Positions 2 through 34,553 of a stretch of 64,000 nucleotides of DNA are shown in pieces. Position 1 is the first letter of the stretch, and the number at the start of each line of letters is the position of its first letter. The DNA comes from an uncultured Gemmatimonadales bacterium. GTDB taxonomy: Bacteria > Gemmatimonadota > Gemmatimonadetes > Gemmatimonadales > GWC2-71-9. The stretch spans positions 416,001-480,000 of the forward strand of contig CAWCFX010000006.1 of NCBI GenBank assembly GCA_963795085.1, read 5' to 3'. The notes beneath the pieces were generated by a model that worked only from the letters and a program-made list of their open reading frames with translations, made no database searches and was not told where the DNA came from. A program made the position numbers and the translations under genes.

Positions 2-445
2 GCCAACTATCTCTTTATCGGATTCCCAACCAAGAGGGCCAAGGTAAGTCCGTCCATCAAGAATGTTTCGCCGGACCTTGTCAGGCATATCGGCTCAGGG
101 GCGAAAGACGGCCAATATCCACTTATTGGCCGCAATCCGCTCACACATGTCGCAATTGGCTTTGATCAACAAGCATCCATAACTGAGCAGGGCATTCGCC
201 CCATTCCTAGTCCCGGCGGCGCAAGTGGTACTGGATTATGGCGTGTCACGATAAGGCCAGCTTTGCTGGGTGGCCCCTCGGCATGGTTGGTTGCGATCTT
301 TACCGACCACCTTGAGCAGGAGAATCTACTGGTTGGCACGCGAATCATCTATCATTTTGCACTAATTCGTGATCGCTGGCCAGATTTCCGTTCAATTGTG
401 CCTTCGATTCCCTATGGCATACGTTTCCAAGTACCAAACCCGTAA
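2..445 (+). CDS. 5'-partial low-GC ORF, probable trypsin-like serine peptidase domain (cassette cargo)
   Basis: Frame 2 is open from the window start to TAA 445: ...YLFIGFP...PSPGGASGTGLW...LVAIFT...LVGTRI. G-x-S-G-x-G resembles the trypsin-fold nucleophile motif. An attC-like site follows immediately. Confidence 0.55.
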   Translation, partial: ANYLFIGFPTKRAKVSPSIKNVSPDLVRHIGSGAKDGQYPLIGRNPLTHVAIGFDQQASITEQGIRPIPSPGGASGTGLWRVTIRPALLGGPSAWLVAIFTDHLEQENLLVGTRIIYHFALIRDRWPDFRSIVPSIPYGIRFQVPNP

Positions 446-5954: not shown

Positions 5955-7547
5955 GTGCCCGATACCCGCCTGATTCTCCCGCCCGCCGGCAGCTCCTCGC
6001 CGCCCACCGGCGGACGGGTACGCGAGATCCCCGAAGACCTGCTCCGGGAAGCCGCCAACCGGCTCCGGCTGAGCGCCCTGATCGGCGTGGTGCTCTGGCT
6101 GGTCGGCCTGACCCTCGACCATCTCGCCCGCCAGGCGCTGGAGCCGGACAACCCGGCCTGGCGGCAGCTCCACGCGGGCGACGCGGTAGCGGCGGTCGGG
6201 ATCCTCACCTCGCTCGGTTTCTATCTCTACGCCCGGTACTCCCGCCGGCCCCCGCGGTTCATGCTGGACCTGGGGCTGGTCTATCTCGTCCTGACCTCGT
6301 TCTCGCTGGCGATTATCGCCCACGTGGGGTCCGGCGTGCATACCGCGACGATCCAGCCCACCTTCAGCTGGGTCGCCTCCCTGGTGCTGATCTTCGCCGC
6401 GATCATTCCCAACCCGCCCGGGAAGACCCTGGTGGCCGGCCTCATCGCCGTCTCCATGAACCCGGTGGCCATGCTCATTGCCCGGGCCCAGGGCGCGTGG
6501 GACTTCGAGCCGGGCAGCCACGCCTTCCTGATGCACTATCCCGACTACATCATGGTGGGCGTGTCGGTCGTCATCTCCCGGGTGGTGACCCGGCTGGGCC
6601 AGCAGGTGGGCAAGGCGCGCGAGCTGGGGAGTTACCGGGTGGGCGAACTGCTCGGCAAGGGAGGCATGGGCGAGGTCTATCACGCGACTCACCGGATGCT
6701 GGCCCGGCCCGCGGCCATCAAGCTGATCCGGGCCGGGATGCTCGGCGGCGGCGACCCCGAAGCGCTGCGACTCGCCCTCCGGCGGTTTCGCCGGGAGGCC
6801 GAGGTGGCGGCGAGCCTCCGGTCTCCCCACACGGTCGAGCTGTATGACTTCGGCGCGACCGAAGACCAGAGCCTCTACTACGTCATGGAGTTGCTCGACG
6901 GGCTGGACCTGGAGGCGCTGGTCCGGATGCACGGCGCCCAGCCCGCCAACCGGGTCGTCCACATCCTGCGCCAGGCCTGCGAATCGCTGGAAGAGGCGCA
7001 CGCCCGCGGCCTGGTGCATCGCGACATCAAGCCGGCCAACATCCACCTGGGCCGAATGGGGCTGCGGCACGACTTCGTCAAGGTGCTCGACTTCGGACTG
7101 GTGAAATCCATCGCGGACGCCGCGGCGGGTGGCGACCAGGAGCACTCGCTGGGGACGGGGATGGGACAGGCGGCGGGCACCCCCGCCTACATGGCGCCGG
7201 AGACCGCGCTGGGTGAAGCGGTGGATGCCCGGACCGATCTCTACGCCCTCGGCTGCGTCGCCTATTACCTGCTCACCGGCACGGTGGTCTTCGAGGCCGC
7301 GACCTCGCTGCAGGCGGTGGCCCGGCATATCAACGACCCGCCGGTCCCACCCTCCGAGCGGCTGGGTGCCCCGCTCCCGGCCGGCCTGGATGCGCTCGTC
7401 CTGGCCCTCCTGGCCAAGCGCCCGGAGAACCGGCCCGGCGACGCGGCCGAGGTGGCGCGACGGCTGGAGGCGGTGGAGGTGGAGCGATGGGGGGAGACCC
7501 AGGCGGCCGCCTGGTGGACAGAACTTGGCGGTAAAACGGGGCGGTAG
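5955..7547 (+). CDS. membrane-anchored Hanks-type Ser/Thr protein kinase
   Basis: Several N-terminal TM helices; GKGGMG, AAIK, HRDIKPAN, DFG, GTPAYMAPE. Confidence 0.92.
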   Translation: MPDTRLILPPAGSSSPPTGGRVREIPEDLLREAANRLRLSALIGVVLWLVGLTLDHLARQALEPDNPAWRQLHAGDAVAAVGILTSLGFYLYARYSRRPPRFMLDLGLVYLVLTSFSLAIIAHVGSGVHTATIQPTFSWVASLVLIFAAIIPNPPGKTLVAGLIAVSMNPVAMLIARAQGAWDFEPGSHAFLMHYPDYIMVGVSVVISRVVTRLGQQVGKARELGSYRVGELLGKGGMGEVYHATHRMLARPAAIKLIRAGMLGGGDPEALRLALRRFRREAEVAASLRSPHTVELYDFGATEDQSLYYVMELLDGLDLEALVRMHGAQPANRVVHILRQACESLEEAHARGLVHRDIKPANIHLGRMGLRHDFVKVLDFGLVKSIADAAAGGDQEHSLGTGMGQAAGTPAYMAPETALGEAVDARTDLYALGCVAYYLLTGTVVFEAATSLQAVARHINDPPVPPSERLGAPLPAGLDALVLALLAKRPENRPGDAAEVARRLEAVEVERWGETQAAAWWTELGGKTGR

Positions 7548-25890: not shown

Positions 25891-25971
25891 AGTTCTTCAA
25901 CGATCGTGATTTCCGTTCGGGCTGCCAGCGACGGGGCCGGCACGAACTTCGTTAGCCCACCCATGTAGCGA

Positions 25972-26008
25972 CTGCGGAACCCGCAGCCGCAGACTGCTGA
26001 ATCCGCAG
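25972..26008 (+). promoter_or_regulatory. two palindromic enhancer (bEBP UAS)-like sites
   Basis: CTGCGG-AAC-CCGCAG (25972) and CTGCTG-AAT-CCGCAG (25994), 22 bp apart, upstream of a sigma54 motif. Confidence 0.7.
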
Positions 26009-26060
26009 GCGGTCACCCCTCGTGGCCTGCCAAGATACTGTCATTAATGGCCTTGGGTCA

Positions 26061-26075
26061 TGGCACCCCCCTTGC
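26061..26075 (+). promoter_or_regulatory. sigma54 -24/-12 promoter
   Basis: TGGCAC-N5-TTGC with exact GG-N10-GC spacing; the operon encodes an NtrC-type activator. Confidence 0.85.
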
Positions 26076-26128: not shown

Positions 26129-27409
26129 ATGAAACGGATCATTCTCGCAACCACAGCGCTCGGCATTGCGGCCGCGGCCGGATTCGGGTTTCTCGCCGGC
26201 GGCTCCGGCGGGGCGCTTACCTACCGTACCACTGCGATCACCCGCGGCAATGTCGAGAGCACCATCAGCACCACCGGCACTCTGGGCGCGGTCAACACCG
26301 TCCAGGTCGGCACCCAGATTTCGGGTCAGGTGTCCGGGCTCTATGCCGACTTCAACGATCGGGTGAAGAAGGGTCAGTTGCTGGCCCGGCTCGACCCCAC
26401 CCTGCTGCAACAGTCGGTGCAGCAGGCCCAGGCCGACGTGGAGCGATCCAGCGCCGAGGTACGCCAGCGGGAATACGCCATGGGCCAGGCTACCGCCCTG
26501 TACCAGATCCAGGGCATCACCGAGACCGAGTATCGCACGGGCGAGTACGATCTCGCGGTCTCAAGGGCTAACCTGAAGTCGGCCGAAAGTGGCCTCGAGC
26601 GGGCCCGGCAGAACCTGCAGTACACCTCCGTGCATTCCCCGGTGGACGGTGTGGTCATCGAACGCACCGTGTCGGTGGGGCAGACGGTGGCGGCGAGTCT
26701 CTCGGCACCGCAGCTGTTCCTCATCGCTGAGGACCTATCCCACATGGAGATCCTGGCCTCGGTGGACGAGAGTGACATCGGCCAGATCAAGGAAGGCCAG
26801 TCGGTGCGGTTCACGGTCCAGGCCTACGCCAACCGGACCTTTGCCGGCACCGTACGCCAGGTGCGGATGCAATCCGAGACCACGGAAGGCGTGGTGAACT
26901 ACACCGTGGTCATCGCGGTCGCGAACCCCGACGCCGCGCTGCTGCCCGGGATGACCGCGACGGTGAGCTTCGAGCTGGCACAGGCCATCGACGTCCTTCG
27001 GGTGCCCAACGCCGCGCTTCGCTTTCGTCCCACCGACGCCATGCTTGCGGCGGTGCCGCAGCCCGCCGGGGACTCGACCCCTCCGGCGACCGAGACGACC
27101 GATGCGACTGTGCGCGTGCGCCTGGCCAGCACCGGCGCAACGGGCGGTGCCCAGGCCGGCAGCCTGGCGCAAGGACGCGGGAGCGTCACCCAGCTCTGGT
27201 ACCTGGACGAACAGGGCGTGGCGCGGGTGGCCCGGGTTCGGGTGGGCCTGTCCGACGGTCAAATGACCCAGATCGCCGGCCCCGATCTTCGCGAAGGATT
27301 ACAGGTCATCACCAGTGTCACCACCGGCGCGGACGGCACCACGGCCACCGCGAGCCCGTTCTCGGGCGCCGCACCGTCGGGCGGTCCACCCGTTCCGGGA
27401 GGGTTCTAG
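26129..27409 (+). CDS. efflux periplasmic adaptor subunit (MacA/HlyD family)
   Basis: VQVGTQISGQV, VKKGQLLARLDP, SPVDGVVIER.VSVGQTVAASLSAP, VDESDIG, LLPGMTA. Confidence 0.92.
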   Translation: MKRIILATTALGIAAAAGFGFLAGGSGGALTYRTTAITRGNVESTISTTGTLGAVNTVQVGTQISGQVSGLYADFNDRVKKGQLLARLDPTLLQQSVQQAQADVERSSAEVRQREYAMGQATALYQIQGITETEYRTGEYDLAVSRANLKSAESGLERARQNLQYTSVHSPVDGVVIERTVSVGQTVAASLSAPQLFLIAEDLSHMEILASVDESDIGQIKEGQSVRFTVQAYANRTFAGTVRQVRMQSETTEGVVNYTVVIAVANPDAALLPGMTATVSFELAQAIDVLRVPNAALRFRPTDAMLAAVPQPAGDSTPPATETTDATVRVRLASTGATGGAQAGSLAQGRGSVTQLWYLDEQGVARVARVRVGLSDGQMTQIAGPDLREGLQVITSVTTGADGTTATASPFSGAAPSGGPPVPGGF

Positions 27410-27410
27410 G

Positions 27411-28166
<756 letters not shown>

Positions 28167-28168
28167 CC

Positions 28169-29386
28169 ATGAAAGCGACTCGACTGATCGATATCGCCAC
28201 CCGGAGCATCCTGAAGAACAAGCTGCGGGCACTGCTCACCATGCTCGGGATCATCATCGGCGTGGGCGCGGTGGTGGTGATGGTGGCCATCGGCCAGGGC
28301 GCCAGCGCCCAGATCCAGCAACAGATCGACAACCTGGGCTCCAACATGATCGTGATCGTCCCGGGCGCCTCCAGTGCCGGGGGAGTGAGCCAGGGTGCGG
28401 GGACGGCCAACCGGCTGACCCTGGAGGACGCCGAGACGCTCGACCGGGAGAGTGTGCTGCTCACTGCCGTCTCGCCGGTCATCGCCACCTTCAGCCAGGT
28501 CGTGGGTGGCCAGGGCAACTGGCGGAGCCAGATCTACGGGGTTTCCACCGACTACACCACCATCAGGGACTGGGGCGTCAGTTCCGGCCGATTCTTCGAC
28601 GATGCCGATCTCCGATCGATGCGCAAGGTCGCCGTCCTCGGCAAGACCGTGGCCGACAACCTGTTTCCCGACCAGGACCCGGTCGGGGCGCAGGTTCGGA
28701 TTCGCAACGTGCCCTTCGACGTGATCGGAGTCCTGGCGGGAAAGGGGCAGACGGCGCAAGGCGCCGATCAGGACGACGTCATCCTGGCCCCGTATACCAC
28801 GGTCCAGACCCGTCTGTCCGGCCGGAGCTTCATCCCCCAGATCCTGGGCAGCACCGCGGCACCCGAGGATATCGCCGCGGCGCAGGACGAGGCCCGGGCC
28901 ATCCTGCGGGAGACCCACAAGCTGCCCAGCTACGAGGCCGACGACTTCACGGTGAAGAACCAGAACGACCTGGCCGACGCCGCGCAGGGCAGCACGGAGG
29001 TCATGACCCTGCTCCTGGCGGCGATCGCCTCGATTTCGCTGCTGGTGGGCGGCATCGGGATCATGAACATCATGCTGGTGTCGGTCACCGAGCGGACCCG
29101 GGAGATCGGGATCCGCATGGCCATCGGCGCGCGCGGGTCCGACGTGCTGGTCCAGTTCCTGGTCGAGAGCATCGTGCTGAGCGCGATCGGCGGCGCGCTG
29201 GGAGTGGGACTGGGCTACGCGTCGGCCGCGGTAGTCCAGCGGCTTACCGGCTGGAGTACCGCCATCGCGCCCGGGGTGGTGGCGATCGCTATCGGGTTCG
29301 CCGCGGTGGTGGGAATCTTCTTCGGGTTCTACCCGGCGCGAAGAGCTGCGGCGCTGGATCCCATCCAGGCGCTCCGGTACGAGTAG
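28169..29386 (+). CDS. ABC transporter permease (MacB/FtsX type)
   Basis: LTMLGIIIGV, GGIGIMNIMLVSVTERTREIGIRMAIGA, PARRAAALDPIQALRYE. Confidence 0.95.
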   Translation: MKATRLIDIATRSILKNKLRALLTMLGIIIGVGAVVVMVAIGQGASAQIQQQIDNLGSNMIVIVPGASSAGGVSQGAGTANRLTLEDAETLDRESVLLTAVSPVIATFSQVVGGQGNWRSQIYGVSTDYTTIRDWGVSSGRFFDDADLRSMRKVAVLGKTVADNLFPDQDPVGAQVRIRNVPFDVIGVLAGKGQTAQGADQDDVILAPYTTVQTRLSGRSFIPQILGSTAAPEDIAAAQDEARAILRETHKLPSYEADDFTVKNQNDLADAAQGSTEVMTLLLAAIASISLLVGGIGIMNIMLVSVTERTREIGIRMAIGARGSDVLVQFLVESIVLSAIGGALGVGLGYASAAVVQRLTGWSTAIAPGVVAIAIGFAAVVGIFFGFYPARRAAALDPIQALRYE

Positions 29387-29388
29387 CC

Positions 29389-30672
29389 ATGCCGGCCTTA
29401 TATTCGCTCATGCCGTCTCGCCGCTACCGCTGGGCCCGATGGGGCTGGCTGGCCACGACCGTTGCGCTGGGCGCGGCCCTCGTGATCTCGGCCTGGATCG
29501 CCCGTGAGCGAGCCGCGGGTGCGGCCGATACCCTGAACCGGGGTCAGGCCGGGGTCTGGCTCGAGTCGGTGCGCCACGTGCTGCGCGAAGCGGAGATGCC
29601 CGTGGGTTCGGGAGCGCTCGATTCGCTGTTCGGCGCGTTGCGTGACGCCGGCGTCGAAGGGATCTCGCTCTTCGATTCTTCCGGAGCCCTGGCGGTGCAG
29701 GCCGGCATCCCGGTCGTGGCCCCGCGATCGGTGCCGGACAGCACCGGGCCGGGGCCGGTGACGATGGTGGACCAGGGCAACCGCATCACGCTGGTGGGCC
29801 CCGCCCTGGGAGGCCGGCCTGGTGACGAGGAGGGTGGCCGCAGCCGGCGTCGTCCGTTCCTGGTCGTCATGGAGTTCACGCCGGTCGCCGCGCACCAGCT
29901 GGTGGAGGACGCCACTCGCCGGTTCTGGCTGTCCTCGCTGGTCGCCGCAGCCTTGTTAGGTGCCGCCCTGGTGTTCTGGCGCCTCATCACGCTCCATGAA
30001 GTTGCCGAACGCCGCTACCGCCAGCAGGAGCAACTCAGCAAGCTGGGCGAGATGTCGGCGGTGCTGGCTCACGAGATCCGCAATCCACTCGCATCACTCA
30101 AGGGCCACGCCCAATTGCTCACGGAACGGCTGGGAGACGGCAGTGCCGAGGGCAACAAGGCGCGGCTGGTGGTGCGAGAAGCCGAGCGCCTGGAGGCGAT
30201 CACCAACGACCTGCTGGGGTTCGCCCGATCCGGTCCAATCGCGATCGAGCCTGCCGACCCGATGACGCTGCTGCGGTCGTGCGCGGATGAGGTGGCGCCC
30301 GGTGGGTTCATCCTGCCGGAGGGCGGGGCGCCGGATACATGGCCCCTCGATTCCCACCGCATGCGGCGGGCGCTGGTCAACATTCTGCGCAACGCCCGCC
30401 AGGCCTCGCCGGAACACACCCGGCCGGAAGCGTCGGTACGAATCGAGCACGGCCGCCTGGTGTTCGCCGTTCGGGACTACGGTCCGGGGATTCCCGCCGG
30501 AGATGAGCGGCGCATCTTCGAGCCGTTCTACACCACCCGGACCTCCGGGACCGGGCTGGGCCTCGCCGTCGCCGCGCGGGTGGCGGAGATGCACGACGGA
30601 GAGGTCCGGGTCCGGAATCATCCCGAGGGCGGCGCGGTGTTCTCCATCGCGATCCCCAGGGGCCTGGGCTGA
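29389..30672 (+). CDS. membrane sensor histidine kinase
   Basis: Two TM helices; LAHEIRNPL; NILRNA, DYGPGI, FEPFYTT, GTGLGL. Confidence 0.93.
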   Translation: MPALYSLMPSRRYRWARWGWLATTVALGAALVISAWIARERAAGAADTLNRGQAGVWLESVRHVLREAEMPVGSGALDSLFGALRDAGVEGISLFDSSGALAVQAGIPVVAPRSVPDSTGPGPVTMVDQGNRITLVGPALGGRPGDEEGGRSRRRPFLVVMEFTPVAAHQLVEDATRRFWLSSLVAAALLGAALVFWRLITLHEVAERRYRQQEQLSKLGEMSAVLAHEIRNPLASLKGHAQLLTERLGDGSAEGNKARLVVREAERLEAITNDLLGFARSGPIAIEPADPMTLLRSCADEVAPGGFILPEGGAPDTWPLDSHRMRRALVNILRNARQASPEHTRPEASVRIEHGRLVFAVRDYGPGIPAGDERRIFEPFYTTRTSGTGLGLAVAARVAEMHDGEVRVRNHPEGGAVFSIAIPRGLG

Positions 30673-30678
30673 GCTCCC

Positions 30679-31959
30679 ATGGCACGAGTCCTGGTGGTGG
30701 ACGACGAAGTCGGGCTGCGGACGTTCATCGCCGAGGCCCTCGAGGGCGACGGCCACGTCGTGTCGCAGGCGGCTGACGGCGCCGAGGCGCTGAGCCAGCT
30801 CGCGCAGGCGGCCTTCGACCTGTTGATCACCGACCTCCGGATGCCCAACGTCGATGGCATGATCCTCCTCCGGCAAGCCCGGGCCGAGCAGCCCGGGATG
30901 GAAGCGATCGTCATGACGGCGCACGGCTCCGTGGATTCTGCGGTCGAAGCGATGAAACTCGGCGCCATCGACTATCTGGAGAAGCCGGTCAAGAGCCCGG
31001 CGGCCCTGCGGGCATTGGTCGCGCGGTCGCTGGAGCGCCAGGGAACCGAAACCCGGGGGGACATGGGGCCCGGCCGAGCCGCGACGGTCTCCCCGGCGGG
31101 GGCCTTCCGGCAATTCACCGCCGCCCTGGCAGACCGGTACGTCATTCAGCGCGAAATCGGCCAGGGTGGGACGGCCACCGTCTACCTGGCTTGGGACCCG
31201 CGCCACGGACGCCAGGTGGCCATCAAGGTCCCCCGCCCTGAACTCGCCGGGATGCTGGGGATCGAGCGGTTCCTGCGCGAGATCGCGATCGTGGCGCGCC
31301 TCACGCATCCGCATATCCTGCCGCTGGTGGATTCCGGCGAGGCGGCGGGTACCTTGTACTATATTATGCCCTATGCCGGCGGCGGGTCGCTACGGGAGTG
31401 GCTGGGCCGACACGCGGTTCCACCGATTCACGTGGCACTGCGACTTGCCAGTCAGGTTGGTGCGGCGCTGGACTACGCCCACCGGCAGGGCTTCGTCCAT
31501 CGAGACATCAAGCCGGAAAACATCCTGTTCACCGATGGCTGGCCCCTCGTCGCGGATTTCGGCATCGCCCGCGCCATCACGATGGCGGCAGGCGATTCCC
31601 TGACGGCCATCGGCGTGACCCTGGGAACCCCGGAATACATGAGTCCTGAGCAGGTGGCCGGTGATCGCTCACTGGATGGCCGGAGCGACGAATACAGCCT
31701 GGCCGTGGTCGTGTTCGAAATGCTTACCGGCGCCGTGCCGTTCGCGGGCGTCAGTGCCCGCGCCACCATGGGACGGCACCTGACGGAGGCTCCGCCGCGG
31801 CTCGGGACCCGCCGGCCGGATATCCCCGAAGTGCTCGAGCAAACGATGAGCCGGGCGCTGGCCAAGAACCCGGCGGATCGCTTTCCGACGATGGCGGCAT
31901 TCGTCGACGCCCTGGGCGCCACATCCGCGATTTCCCTCGCCACCTCCGGGTCGTCCTAG
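30679..31959 (+). CDS. receiver (REC) domain fused to Hanks-type Ser/Thr kinase
   Basis: REC: VDDE, TDLRMP (D52), T80, EKP. Kinase: [30 protein letters not shown]. Confidence 0.92.
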
Positions 31960-31963
31960 AACG

Positions 31964-33292
31964 ATGGCGACAATCCTGGTGGCCGAGGACGAACCCGGAC
32001 TGCGGGCGTTCATCGCTGAAGCGCTCGAGGGCGACGGCCACCGGGTGTCGCAGGCGGCCGACGGGGCCGAGGCGCTGAGGCAACTGGCGGGGGCCGCCTT
32101 CGATCTGCTGATCACCGATCTCCGGATGCCCAACCTCGACGGGATGGCGTTGCTCCGGCGATCCCGGGCCGAGCAGCCGGAGATGGAAGTGATCGTCCTG
32201 ACCGCCCACGGTTCGGTGGACTCGGCGGTAGAAGCCATGAGGCTCGGCGCCTTCGACTACCTGGAGAAGCCGATCGGGAGCCCGGCCGAACTCCGGCTGA
32301 TCGCGATGCGGGCGCTGGAACGGCGGTCGCTCCTGGCGGTGAAGGACCGGGCTGCCAGGGAGGTCCCGGCGCTACCGCCCCTTTCGTTCGGTGATCCCGC
32401 GATGGTCCCGGTGCTGGAGGCTCTCCGGAAGGTGGCCCGGACCAATGCCACGGTGTTGCTGACCGGCGAGAGCGGGGTCGGCAAGGAGATCGCCGCGCGC
32501 ACGCTGCACGCCTGGAGCGACCGGGCGGATGGGCCGTTCGTGGCGCTCAACTGCGCGGCCATCGCCGATTCCCTGCTGGAAAGCGAGCTGTTCGGCCATG
32601 AGAAGGGTGCGTTTACCGGCGCGACCTCGGCCCGTCGGGGGCGGATCGAGCTGGCGGACGGCGGGACCTTCTTCCTGGACGAGATCGCCGAGATGAAGCT
32701 CGAGCTCCAGGCCAAGTTGCTCCGGGTGCTGGAACAGCGCCGGTACGAGCGGGTGGGCGGGTCACGCACCCTCGATGCCGACGTGCGCTGGGTGGCGGCC
32801 ACCAACCGCCAACTCGGCCAGTTGCGGGCGTCGGGCGATTTCCGGGAAGACCTGTATCACCGGCTTGCCGTCTTTCCGATTCACCTGCCGCCTCTGCGGG
32901 AGCGACGGTCGGATATCCTGCCCATCGCGGAGTCGCTGCTGATCCGGCTGGCCTCGGAGCTGGGTCGCGGCCGGCTGACGCTGTCTGACCCGGTCCGACG
33001 CCGACTGGTCGAGGCGCCGTGGCCGGGTAATGTGCGCGAACTGGCCAATGCGCTGGAGCGGGCCGCCATCATCGCCGATGGGGCCGAGATCAGGGCCGAG
33101 CATCTCTCGGTTCCCACGGTGTTCCCGGAGGGGGTCGCCGGCCCCAGCGACGAGTCGCTGGCCGCCATCGAGCGGGCCGCGATCGAGAACGCCATCGCCC
33201 GCGCGCAGGGCAACCGTAACGAAGCGGCGCGGATGCTCGGCATCGGGGTGCGGACGCTGTACGACAAGCTCAGGAAATACCGCGACGCATGA
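31964..33292 (+). CDS. sigma54-dependent response regulator (NtrC/AtoC family)
   Basis: [39 protein letters not shown], Fis-type HTH. Confidence 0.96.
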
Positions 33293-33497: not shown

Positions 33498-34553
33498 ATG
33501 TCCGTGTCACACAGCGCACCCTTCGCAGCCATCGCACTCGTCCTGGCGGGTTGCGGATCGAACAGGAATCAACCCGCGGTCGTCCACCCGGATTTCGACC
33601 TGGCCGCCTTCGCCGGGCGCTTCGAGCCAGGCTCGATTGTCGGAGCGCCGCGGATCGTGGCATGCACCCTGTCGGAGGGAGCCTCGACCTCGTGCGTCAC
33701 GGTGACGTTGCCCGCGAGTCCGGCGGCATTCACCATGGGCCCATGGTGCCCGACCAACACCAGGGATGGGGCGGATCGGGGCGGCATCTGGCCCGAGAGG
33801 GGAGTGGTGCACGACGTGGACGGCCCATTCATCATGAACCTGTCGCGCTTCTATAACGACTCCACCTGGGGCATGTACGACCCGGCGACCGGGGCCGTGA
33901 ACGTCACGGATACGCCCGAGGCCTGCGCGGCCGCGGCGCGCCCCGACGTGGACCCTCGGTACACCAACTACTGCGTCCAGTGCCTTGCGGCCTACATCGA
34001 GGATGGACTCACCAGCACCTACGTCATTCCCATCGCGCCGGTGGCCGCGAGCGCCCTCGCGCCGCGGGTGGGACACGACGGTGTGGGGATCGCCTACAGC
34101 GGCGTCCGGCTCGACGCCCCGGCTCCCACGGACGATATTCTGAGCGCCTACACCATTGCCCCGTTCGACGATTGTGGGGGCCATGTGAACCCGAACGTCG
34201 GATACCATATCCATGCCGTGACCGACTGCCTGCGCCAGCGGCCCGCGGCGGGCGCGCATGCGGCCGAGCTCGGTATCGCGATGGACGGCTACCCGCTCTA
34301 CGCCCGGGTGACCCTCGATGGAGTGATGCCCCAGGACCTGGACGCATGCCACGGCCACACGACCCTGGCCGAAGGCTACCACTACCACGTCGGTGCGGCC
34401 GGATCGAACGAGATCCTCGGCTGCCACGCGGGCCAGACGGGGTGCGTGCTGACGGATCCCGACGCGCCATGCGACGCCAGCCTGGCGGCACCCCCGGGCG
34501 GGGGCCCTCCAGGCAGAGGACCGCCGGCGGGACGCCCCCCACGGGGAGGGTAG
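33498..34553 (+). CDS. YHYH domain lipoprotein
   Basis: GGAGGT RBS, LAGC, DDCGGH...YHIH, GIAMDGYPLY, LDACHGH, YHYHV. Confidence 0.88.
   Translation: MSVSHSAPFAAIALVLAGCGSNRNQPAVVHPDFDLAAFAGRFEPGSIVGAPRIVACTLSEGASTSCVTVTLPASPAAFTMGPWCPTNTRDGADRGGIWPERGVVHDVDGPFIMNLSRFYNDSTWGMYDPATGAVNVTDTPEACAAAARPDVDPRYTNYCVQCLAAYIEDGLTSTYVIPIAPVAASALAPRVGHDGVGIAYSGVRLDAPAPTDDILSAYTIAPFDDCGGHVNPNVGYHIHAVTDCLRQRPAAGAHAAELGIAMDGYPLYARVTLDGVMPQDLDACHGHTTLAEGYHYHVGAAGSNEILGCHAGQTGCVLTDPDAPCDASLAAPPGGGPPGRGPPAGRPPRGG

Follow-up and report, generated by a model that had tools for sequence, protein, structure and literature searches.

It is well established that the output of a response regulator can be an enzyme, as in CheB, PleD and the receiver domain (REC)-PP2C phosphatases such as RsbY; in the REC-PP2C proteins, a two-component input is linked to Ser/Thr phospho-signalling by way of the phosphatase. 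Two-component systems and Hanks-type Ser/Thr kinases are usually seen as separate layers which meet through cross-phosphorylation only. Fungal Rim15 kinases are reported to carry a receiver (PMC8510515), and in a 2018 review of the bacterial Hanks kinases the word 'receiver' is absent (PMC6213207). In open-access full texts, we found no experimental work on a bacterial protein of the REC-Hanks kinase type. Branched pathways are the other point of comparison. In one survey, triads of one histidine kinase (HK) gene and two response regulator genes are recognised, triads making up about 4-5% of two-component genes, with two regulators in 55.5% of those that hold both HK and regulator genes (PMC3018481), and the Pseudomonas Roc system is described as branched (PMC12051241). 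In the present study, we analysed a stretch of 64,000 nucleotides (hereafter the window) from an uncultured, soil-type Gemmatimonadales bacterium (assembly GCA_963795085.1, contig CAWCFX010000006.1, positions 416,001 to 480,000, forward strand), in which a gene at 30679-31959 encodes a protein of 426 aa made of a REC and a Hanks-type Ser/Thr kinase. The host genome measures 3.9 Mb in six contigs, and the closest protein relatives of the window genes bear Gemmatimonadota names. We consider it somewhat probable that this gene is a response regulator with a Hanks-type Ser/Thr kinase output, forming one arm of a branched two-component pathway. The pair of Response_reg and Pkinase domains is already labelled in databases (a JGI name, for example, is 'FixJ family two-component response regulator'), so that the architecture is already catalogued; what is new is that it is placed here as a second arm, paralogous to the first, in a sigma54 two-component operon, and that it apparently arose more than once.

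Like the branched systems and triads, the window holds one HK gene and two receiver genes in one cluster; unlike them, the second regulator has a predicted Hanks kinase output and a receiver that is a 78% copy of that of the first. As in CheB, PleD, the REC-PP2C proteins and Rim15, a receiver would control an enzyme, but here the predicted output is the kinase itself. With the PknB/Stk1 kinases the protein shares the catalytic fold and motifs, and its best NCBIfam model is NF033483 with 256 bits. The cut-off of that model is 450 bits, however, the match covers the kinase part only, and in place of a membrane helix, PASTA repeats or another sensor there is an N-terminal receiver input; the protein therefore does not belong to the Stk1/PknB PASTA kinases (NF033483). 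The closest kinase domains are those of the Gemmatimonadota kinase-TPR proteins of about 745 aa (e.g. P0019), which are 65% identical and sister to it in the tree, but which carry the kinase at the N-terminus followed by a TPR tail of about 470 aa, whereas in the window protein the kinase comes after a receiver and has no tail. Finally, the NtrC/AtoC/ZraR activators with AtoS/ZraS-like sensors give the best models for the HK and NtrC-type neighbours, and the receiver of the kinase comes from this lineage, although the REC-kinase is without the AAA+ domain and the helix-turn-helix (HTH). The two neighbours are not named as orthologues because all scores lie under the equivalog cut-offs, as do those of AtoS and ZraS, the best NCBIfam models for the HK. 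A regulator with a kinase output would offer a direct and genetically compact link between the two layers, standing beside a paralogous transcription factor and a sensor.

Both halves of the protein appear complete. The receiver was recovered by the PF00072 profile over residues 4-111 with 97.5 bits (cut-off 30.2), and its active-site residues D8, D9, D52, T80 and K102 are present. The PF00069 profile covers residues 154-404 with 153.6 bits (cut-off 31.7), and the full motif set, from the Gly loop and the alphaC Glu to Asp IX and Arg XI, was found, with VAIK at 180-183, HRD at 274-276, DFG at 293-295 and SPE at 322-324. The initial annotation, made from the letters alone, had stated that D52, T80 and K102 are kept and that these four kinase motifs are intact, and both statements proved correct. 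Furthermore, the five receiver residues are invariant in all 16 aligned REC-kinases, which belong to several lineages, and the same holds for G161, G163, K183, E201, H274-R275-D276, N281, D293, G295, T317, E324, D337 and R401 of the kinase. The stop codon lies 11 residues past the end of the alignment to other kinases (415 of 426), and no membrane helix was found, the single hydrophobic window (340-358) sitting in a helix of the kinase core (334-350 of the model); the protein is thus without a sensor tail, as had been noted before. An AlphaFold2 (AF2) model built from an alignment of 16 sequences, with a mean predicted local distance difference test (pLDDT) of 85 and a predicted template modelling score (pTM) of 0.64, predicts a (beta-alpha)5 receiver at 3-125 (pLDDT mostly >90) and a kinase at 155-423, with an activation loop of low confidence at 303-314. 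The linker between the two differs in length between the REC-kinase relatives.

We found that the kinase REC and the REC of the neighbouring NtrC-type protein are identical at 94 of 121 positions (78%) and align gaplessly; the earlier hand count of 94 in 120 was right within one position, as 94 identities are obtained over the first 121-125 aligned positions. The next most similar REC in the same genome is only 40% identical to the kinase REC, so that the likeness of the pair far exceeds the paralogue background, and the neighbour ranks first of 36 NtrC RECs by likeness to the kinase REC. The nonsynonymous and synonymous divergences of the pair (dN 0.155, dS 0.54) give a ratio of 0.29, and this comparison, which the initial annotation had called for, indicates that the pair is under purifying selection. 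Tandem paralogues 1.3 kb apart on the same strand are good substrates for gene conversion, and with the neighbour ranked first in likeness, recent conversion could be thought to keep the receivers alike in place of descent and selection. This is very improbable, and recent conversion was rejected: dS is 0.54, 30 of the 94 conserved codons carry synonymous differences and the longest identical nucleotide run is 18 nt, which exclude a recent duplication as well. In addition, at the two related loci L001 and L012 other NtrC RECs are closer to the kinase REC than the neighbour, which ranks only 15 and 5 of 36. The same dS and run length, together with full-length relatives at 63-68% identity, indicate that the fusion is old. 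The 27 differences cluster in helix alpha5, on the side of the output, where 9 of 18 positions differ against 18 of 103 elsewhere (Fisher p = 0.005, the region having been chosen post hoc). In helix alpha4 and strand beta5, which contribute to the face by which NtrC-class receivers usually dimerise, only two positions differ, 93 and 97. A receiver pair with 78% identity may serve as a natural experiment in how one sensor serves two outputs and in how a receiver is refitted to a new output, as the alpha5 divergence suggests.

The gene order also speaks for a shared pathway. On the + strand, the frame of the HK stops at 30672, the REC-kinase open reading frame (ORF) runs from 30679 to 31959 and the NtrC-type ORF from 31964 to 33292, which leaves 6 nt and 4 nt between them; the order HK, REC-kinase, REC-AAA-HTH with gaps of 4-6 nt, as first described, is thus borne out by the ORFs, and the domains by Pfam, and the initial description held in all the details that were checked. 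These three genes end a run of six (macA, macB for the ATPase, macB for the permease, HK, REC-STK and ntrC) with overlaps or gaps of no more than 6 nt, the gap between the macB permease gene and the HK gene being 2 nt. One HK gene and two receiver genes on the same strand, with gaps of 6 and 4 nt, is the arrangement expected of a branched pathway whose genes are co-transcribed. No sigma70-like promoter or terminator-like site was found by sequence scan between the HK, REC-STK and ntrC genes, and the operon-wide scan gave a single promoter-like sequence at 27946-27973 and a single terminator-like sequence at 29297-29313, both within the macB genes and at chance level. The GC content of the region (0.68-0.69) is normal for the window. 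In the HK, a hydropathy scan and the motif position place hydrophobic segments at about 19-39 and 178-203, a periplasmic part at about 40-177 and the H-box histidine at His228.

Upstream of macA lies a sigma54-type promoter element (26061-26075), which is the sole match of a relaxed -24/-12 regex on the + strand of the 64-kb window (two matches on both strands), and rpoN was found in the host genome. It is preceded by two tandem boxes (25970-26011), 22 nt from start to start, which are probably binding sites of the NtrC-type activator. When the macA upstream regions of the window and of L086, L087, L089, L091 and L006 were compared, a box pair 21-23 nt apart followed 64-67 nt on by GG-N10-GC was present in 6 of 6, the box and promoter regexes having been composed after sight of the sequences. 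The NtrC-type protein contains the Walker A motif GESGVGKE at 168 and GAFTGA at 215; its domains, the GAFTGA motif, the genomic rpoN and the -24/-12 promoter with upstream sites assign it, as a prediction, to the NtrC-type sigma54 activators. Since a conserved sigma54 promoter and two tandem palindromic boxes lie upstream, self-induction of the operon is suggested, and the six genes are probably one sigma54 operon activated by its own NtrC-type product.

It is suggested that the HK, seated in the membrane, responds to a cue from the periplasm or the envelope and would phosphorylate D52 of both receivers. The NtrC-type protein would then activate the sigma54 promoter and so raise the expression of the exporter and of the three signalling genes, a positive feedback. 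On the other arm, the phosphorylated REC, held on a flexible linker of about 13-22 residues, may activate the soluble kinase, and the likely route would be the release of an inhibitory contact or REC-driven dimerisation, with autophosphorylation of the activation loop to follow. The His-Asp signal would by this means become Ser/Thr phosphorylation of cytoplasmic targets. The gene packing, the promoter and boxes, the catalytic residues and the kinship of the receivers are read from the sequence, and the steps from the phosphorylation of D52 onward are what we infer from them. The branched reading is supported by the kept catalytic residues in both receivers and in the kinase and by the fact that the receivers are closest paralogues. 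It further draws on the purifying selection on the receiver pair, the full-length relatives, the concentration of differences in helix alpha5, the conserved promoter and boxes, and a model with two confident domains joined by a linker of low confidence. The initial annotation had suggested that one HK could drive both outputs or that the fusion may act as a phosphate sink, and both ideas agree with the anatomy. The function is plausible and readily testable, and the system is small enough for reconstitution in vitro from three soluble parts and one promoter.

Proteins of the same layout exist elsewhere. Among 5.8 billion proteins, four metagenome clusters (P0002, P0003, P0004 and P0005, with 2, 5, 1 and 7 member sequences, 15 in total) of 427-431 aa showed a colinear REC-linker-kinase order and 63-68% identity over 97-100% of the length, and remoter REC-kinases matched at 43-47% identity. 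A profile search of 1.84 billion representatives gave mostly multi-kinase proteins among its best 150, and 6 of these 150 matched REC and kinase together. In genome samples, which are not a census, residues 1-207 were used as a single query for matches spanning the junction. These were found in 2 of 200 other genomes of the family sample (G123 and G057), which takes in four genomes flagged unpublished, all negative, and in 3 of 400 other genomes of the phylum sample (G057, G381 and G489; E <= 1e-28); a further family row, G130 (query 3-183, 38% identical), falls outside the count of 2 in 200. By this search, junction-spanning REC-kinases are rare in the sampled genomes. A metagenome scan via REC peptides gave no 63-68% relative in the 80 loci listed, and a genome-collection scan with the kinase peptides HRD[VI]KPEN and GTPEYMSP found a REC in front in 0 of 73 among the matches listed, the best identity among these being 58%.

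We also weighed whether the gene could be a relic or an artefact, that is, a misassembly or a functionless by-product of a decaying duplication, and judge this extremely improbable. No other genome is known to hold the exact protein (a cluster of 2 members from 1 contig). Matches from two soil-DNA runs (9-10% of sampled words) amounted to 11 pieces of 20-225 nt, none over 31040-31110, which is evidence neither way, and no RNA run was among the matches listed. Against this, the frame of 426 codons is open and has all motifs, the gene sits on a contig of 844 kb, the dN/dS ratio of the receivers is 0.29, and the 15 members of the four other clusters have the same colinear architecture. On the strength of its sequence, the gene is real, intact and under selection.

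The genomic context of the relatives was then compared. Among the loci listed, the HK gene is followed directly by the NtrC orthologue in 18, and a REC-kinase stands between them in four (the window, L001, L012 and L081); in L001 and L012 the order is HK, REC-kinase, NtrC with spacing as tight as in the window. The three loci L082-L084 (from G057, G381 and G489) belong to another HK/NtrC family and show the order REC-kinase, NtrC, HK by tblastn, gene contiguity in L083 and L084 being backed by ORFs. In the synteny comparison, which the initial annotation had proposed, all 7 REC-kinase loci with context, among those listed, hold an HK gene and an NtrC-type gene or remnant in the cluster. The remnant is that of L081 (G123), where the HK gene and an intact REC-kinase gene are accompanied by residues 323-439 only of an NtrC protein, followed by macA and macB genes. 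This piece (L081:5785-6133, minus strand) corresponds to the last 117 or so NtrC codons with a frameshift near residue 366, and looks like a deletion of the REC and AAA+ parts of the activator which spared the kinase. An intact REC-kinase beside a frameshifted NtrC remnant further supports the branched reading.

Two other explanations bear on the same evidence. In the first, the extra receiver is a phosphate sink or competitor: it would mainly take up phosphoryl groups from the HK, by which the response through NtrC is tuned or sharpened, and the kinase would be secondary or a scaffold; we regard this as rather unlikely. Two near-copy receivers under one shared promoter, one of them adjoining the HK gene, would suit a sink, and the form that is classic for a sink occurs at the related locus L008, where a stand-alone receiver of 125 aa (138-512) stands 4 nt ahead of an NtrC-type gene (517-1836). 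The two receivers there are 76% identical, without any difference in the first 22 residues, and pair as sisters in the tree (99/92). By sequence, the L008 receiver represents another kind of extra copy drawn from this NtrC lineage, and extra receivers copied from the lineage arise repeatedly. However, the invariance of the kinase catalytic residues in 16 of 16 REC-kinases would be needless for a mere sink, and the intact REC-kinase of L081 beside a dead NtrC gene is a mild argument against a pure sink; an additional sink role would be compatible with the kinase output that we favour.

In the second, regulation would stay within the system, through REC-REC heterodimers with the NtrC receiver or through Ser/Thr phosphorylation of NtrC, the HK or MacB. 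Such cross-regulation seems unlikely, though less so than a sink. It is in accord with the near identity of helix alpha4 and strand beta5, which differ at positions 93 and 97 only, and with the NtrC-type gene or remnant that adjoins the REC-kinase in each of the 7 loci. Against it, divergence is highest in helix alpha5 (9 of 18), which also belongs to the dimer face, and L081 keeps the kinase without a working NtrC. The scan of 27 window ORFs has a bearing on this reading and on the branched one: it found neither FHA nor PP2C genes nor any other evident gene for a substrate or partner, and the lack of another candidate substrate nearby would favour cross-regulation.

That result is one of several which weigh against a branched pathway with a kinase output. 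Helix alpha1, the main HK-contact helix, differs at 2 of 12 positions against 25 of 109 elsewhere and shows no significant excess of conservation over the remainder of the REC (p = 1.0), so that a shared HK specificity rests on overall likeness and gene position only. The arrangement of the two domains in the AF2 model is uncertain, as the pTM of 0.64 indicates, and the proposed activation mechanism is therefore a guess from other kinases and receivers. Moreover, the whole operon is apparently absent from three genomes of the same genus (G065, G171 and G127, 94, 81 and 79% complete), where no orthologue of the NtrC-type protein was found and the best match was 45%; its role would accordingly be accessory. 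Among the matches listed, the closest orthologous operons (identities of 70-73% for NtrC, 54-58% for the HK and 71-73% for the MacB permease) come from two other families of the order and from the metagenome contig L006, with the HK gene and then the NtrC gene directly. Such a patchy distribution makes transfer within the phylum possible.

The origin of the gene was approached through trees of both domains. In a tree of 55 receivers, based on the 121-residue domain and weak at depth as such trees are, the window kinase REC and those of P0002-P0005 form one group (support 98/93), and this group falls in a clade (98/98) with the NtrC RECs of the window, L091, L086, L006 and L087. Its place within the clade is either beside the window NtrC REC (90/75) or beside the whole group of five NtrC RECs, and a tree which holds these five together without the kinase RECs was not rejected (p = 0.51). 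The kinase tree puts the window group (support 100) next to the kinase-TPR proteins of about 745 aa as its sister, with Shimodaira-Hasegawa-like approximate likelihood ratio test (SH-aLRT) values of 94 for 100 rows and 98 for 41 rows, and residues 148-415 of the window protein align gaplessly with residues 10-277 of a 746-aa kinase-TPR protein at 65% identity. Because the REC groups with NtrC RECs of the operon family and the kinase with kinase-TPR proteins, the receiver appears to have been joined to a tail-less Hanks kinase. It is supported that the fusion arose from a receiver of the lineage of its cognate NtrC and a Gemmatimonadota kinase of the kinase-TPR family, which lost its tail of about 470 aa. 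The initial annotation had proposed a local duplication which grafted the cognate receiver onto a Hanks kinase. The phylogeny it asked for agrees with it on the source of the receiver, and the kinase-TPR kinship adds the source of the kinase, so that the proposal is right in essence, but the event is old and no fresh local duplication, given a dS of 0.54 and relatives at 63-68%.

The remaining REC-kinases fall elsewhere in both trees. With the approximately unbiased (AU) test, a single clade of all 18 REC-kinases was rejected by the kinase domain (p-AU 3.7e-86, 41 rows hand-picked from 100), and a single clade of all REC-kinases was rejected by the receiver too (p-AU 3.4e-7). Of the group tests, which were partly post hoc, the one that unites the window group with the L001/L012/L081 group, named post hoc, was rejected by the kinase domain (p = 4.5e-4) and not by the receiver (p = 0.21). 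With a single origin rejected by either tree, the two domains must have been joined independently two or three times at the least, or the kinase must have been swapped later. A tentative reading, to which we give somewhat less than even chances, is that Gemmatimonadota built REC-Hanks kinase fusions several times and independently, each from an NtrC-lineage receiver and a different kinase and each kept in an HK/NtrC triad, so that one sensor would feed a sigma54 arm and a Ser/Thr arm by convergent wiring. As part of that reading, the kinase arm would have outlived the transcriptional arm in at least one lineage, that of L081. The apparent repeated origin in one phylum suggests that the design is selectively useful.

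Table 1. Positions in the window of the promoter elements, the genes of the putative operon and the parts of the REC-kinase
Feature	Position	Strand	Basis
Two tandem 20-nt elements (TGCGGAACCCGCA, TGCTGAATCCGCA), each with a TGC-N7-GCA palindrome	25970..26011	+	Repeat and inverted-repeat search
Sigma54-type promoter element TGGCAC-N5-TTGC	26061..26075	+	Ends 53 nt 5' of the macA ATG
macA-like periplasmic adaptor (HlyD family)	26129..27409	+	Pfam HlyD_D23, HlyD_3
macB-like ABC ATPase	27408..28166	+	Pfam ABC_tran 110 bits; start is the ATG overlapping the macA stop
macB-like permease (MacB_PCD + FtsX)	28169..29386	+	Pfam
Sensor histidine kinase	29389..30672	+	Pfam HisKA + HATPase_c; start taken as ATG 29389
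REC-kinase, receiver domain (residues 1-125)	30679..31053	+	Pfam Response_reg 97.5 bits
REC-kinase, linker (residues 126-147)	31054..31119	+	AF2 model: pLDDT <50 at 126-137, helix 139-149 preceding the kinase
REC-kinase, Hanks-type Ser/Thr kinase domain (residues 148-415) with the short tail and stop codon after it	31120..31959	+	Pfam Pkinase 153.6 bits, motifs
NtrC-type sigma54 activator (REC, AAA+, lid, Fis-type HTH)	31964..33292	+	Pfam Response_reg + Sigma54_activat 223.5 bits + AAA_lid_14 + HTH_8

Beyond the operon, a gene for a YHYH-family protein with a Pro/Gly-rich C-terminus (33498-34553, + strand) lies 205 nt past the NtrC-type gene, and no sigma54-like element was seen in the 205-nt gap before it. 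The window contains another Ser/Thr kinase gene (5955-7547, + strand), which encodes 530 aa with a kinase domain at 227-495, the 226 residues before it matching no recognised domain. Outside the window, contig C4 of the host genome carries 13 kinase-domain matches at about 462,000-497,100, spaced 2-4.5 kb apart on one strand, with open frames of about 600-1030 aa, one of them with internal stop codons. Judged by this spacing and the frames, the array is one of tandem paralogous Ser/Thr kinase genes, and ten of the 13 kinases form one clade in the kinase tree.

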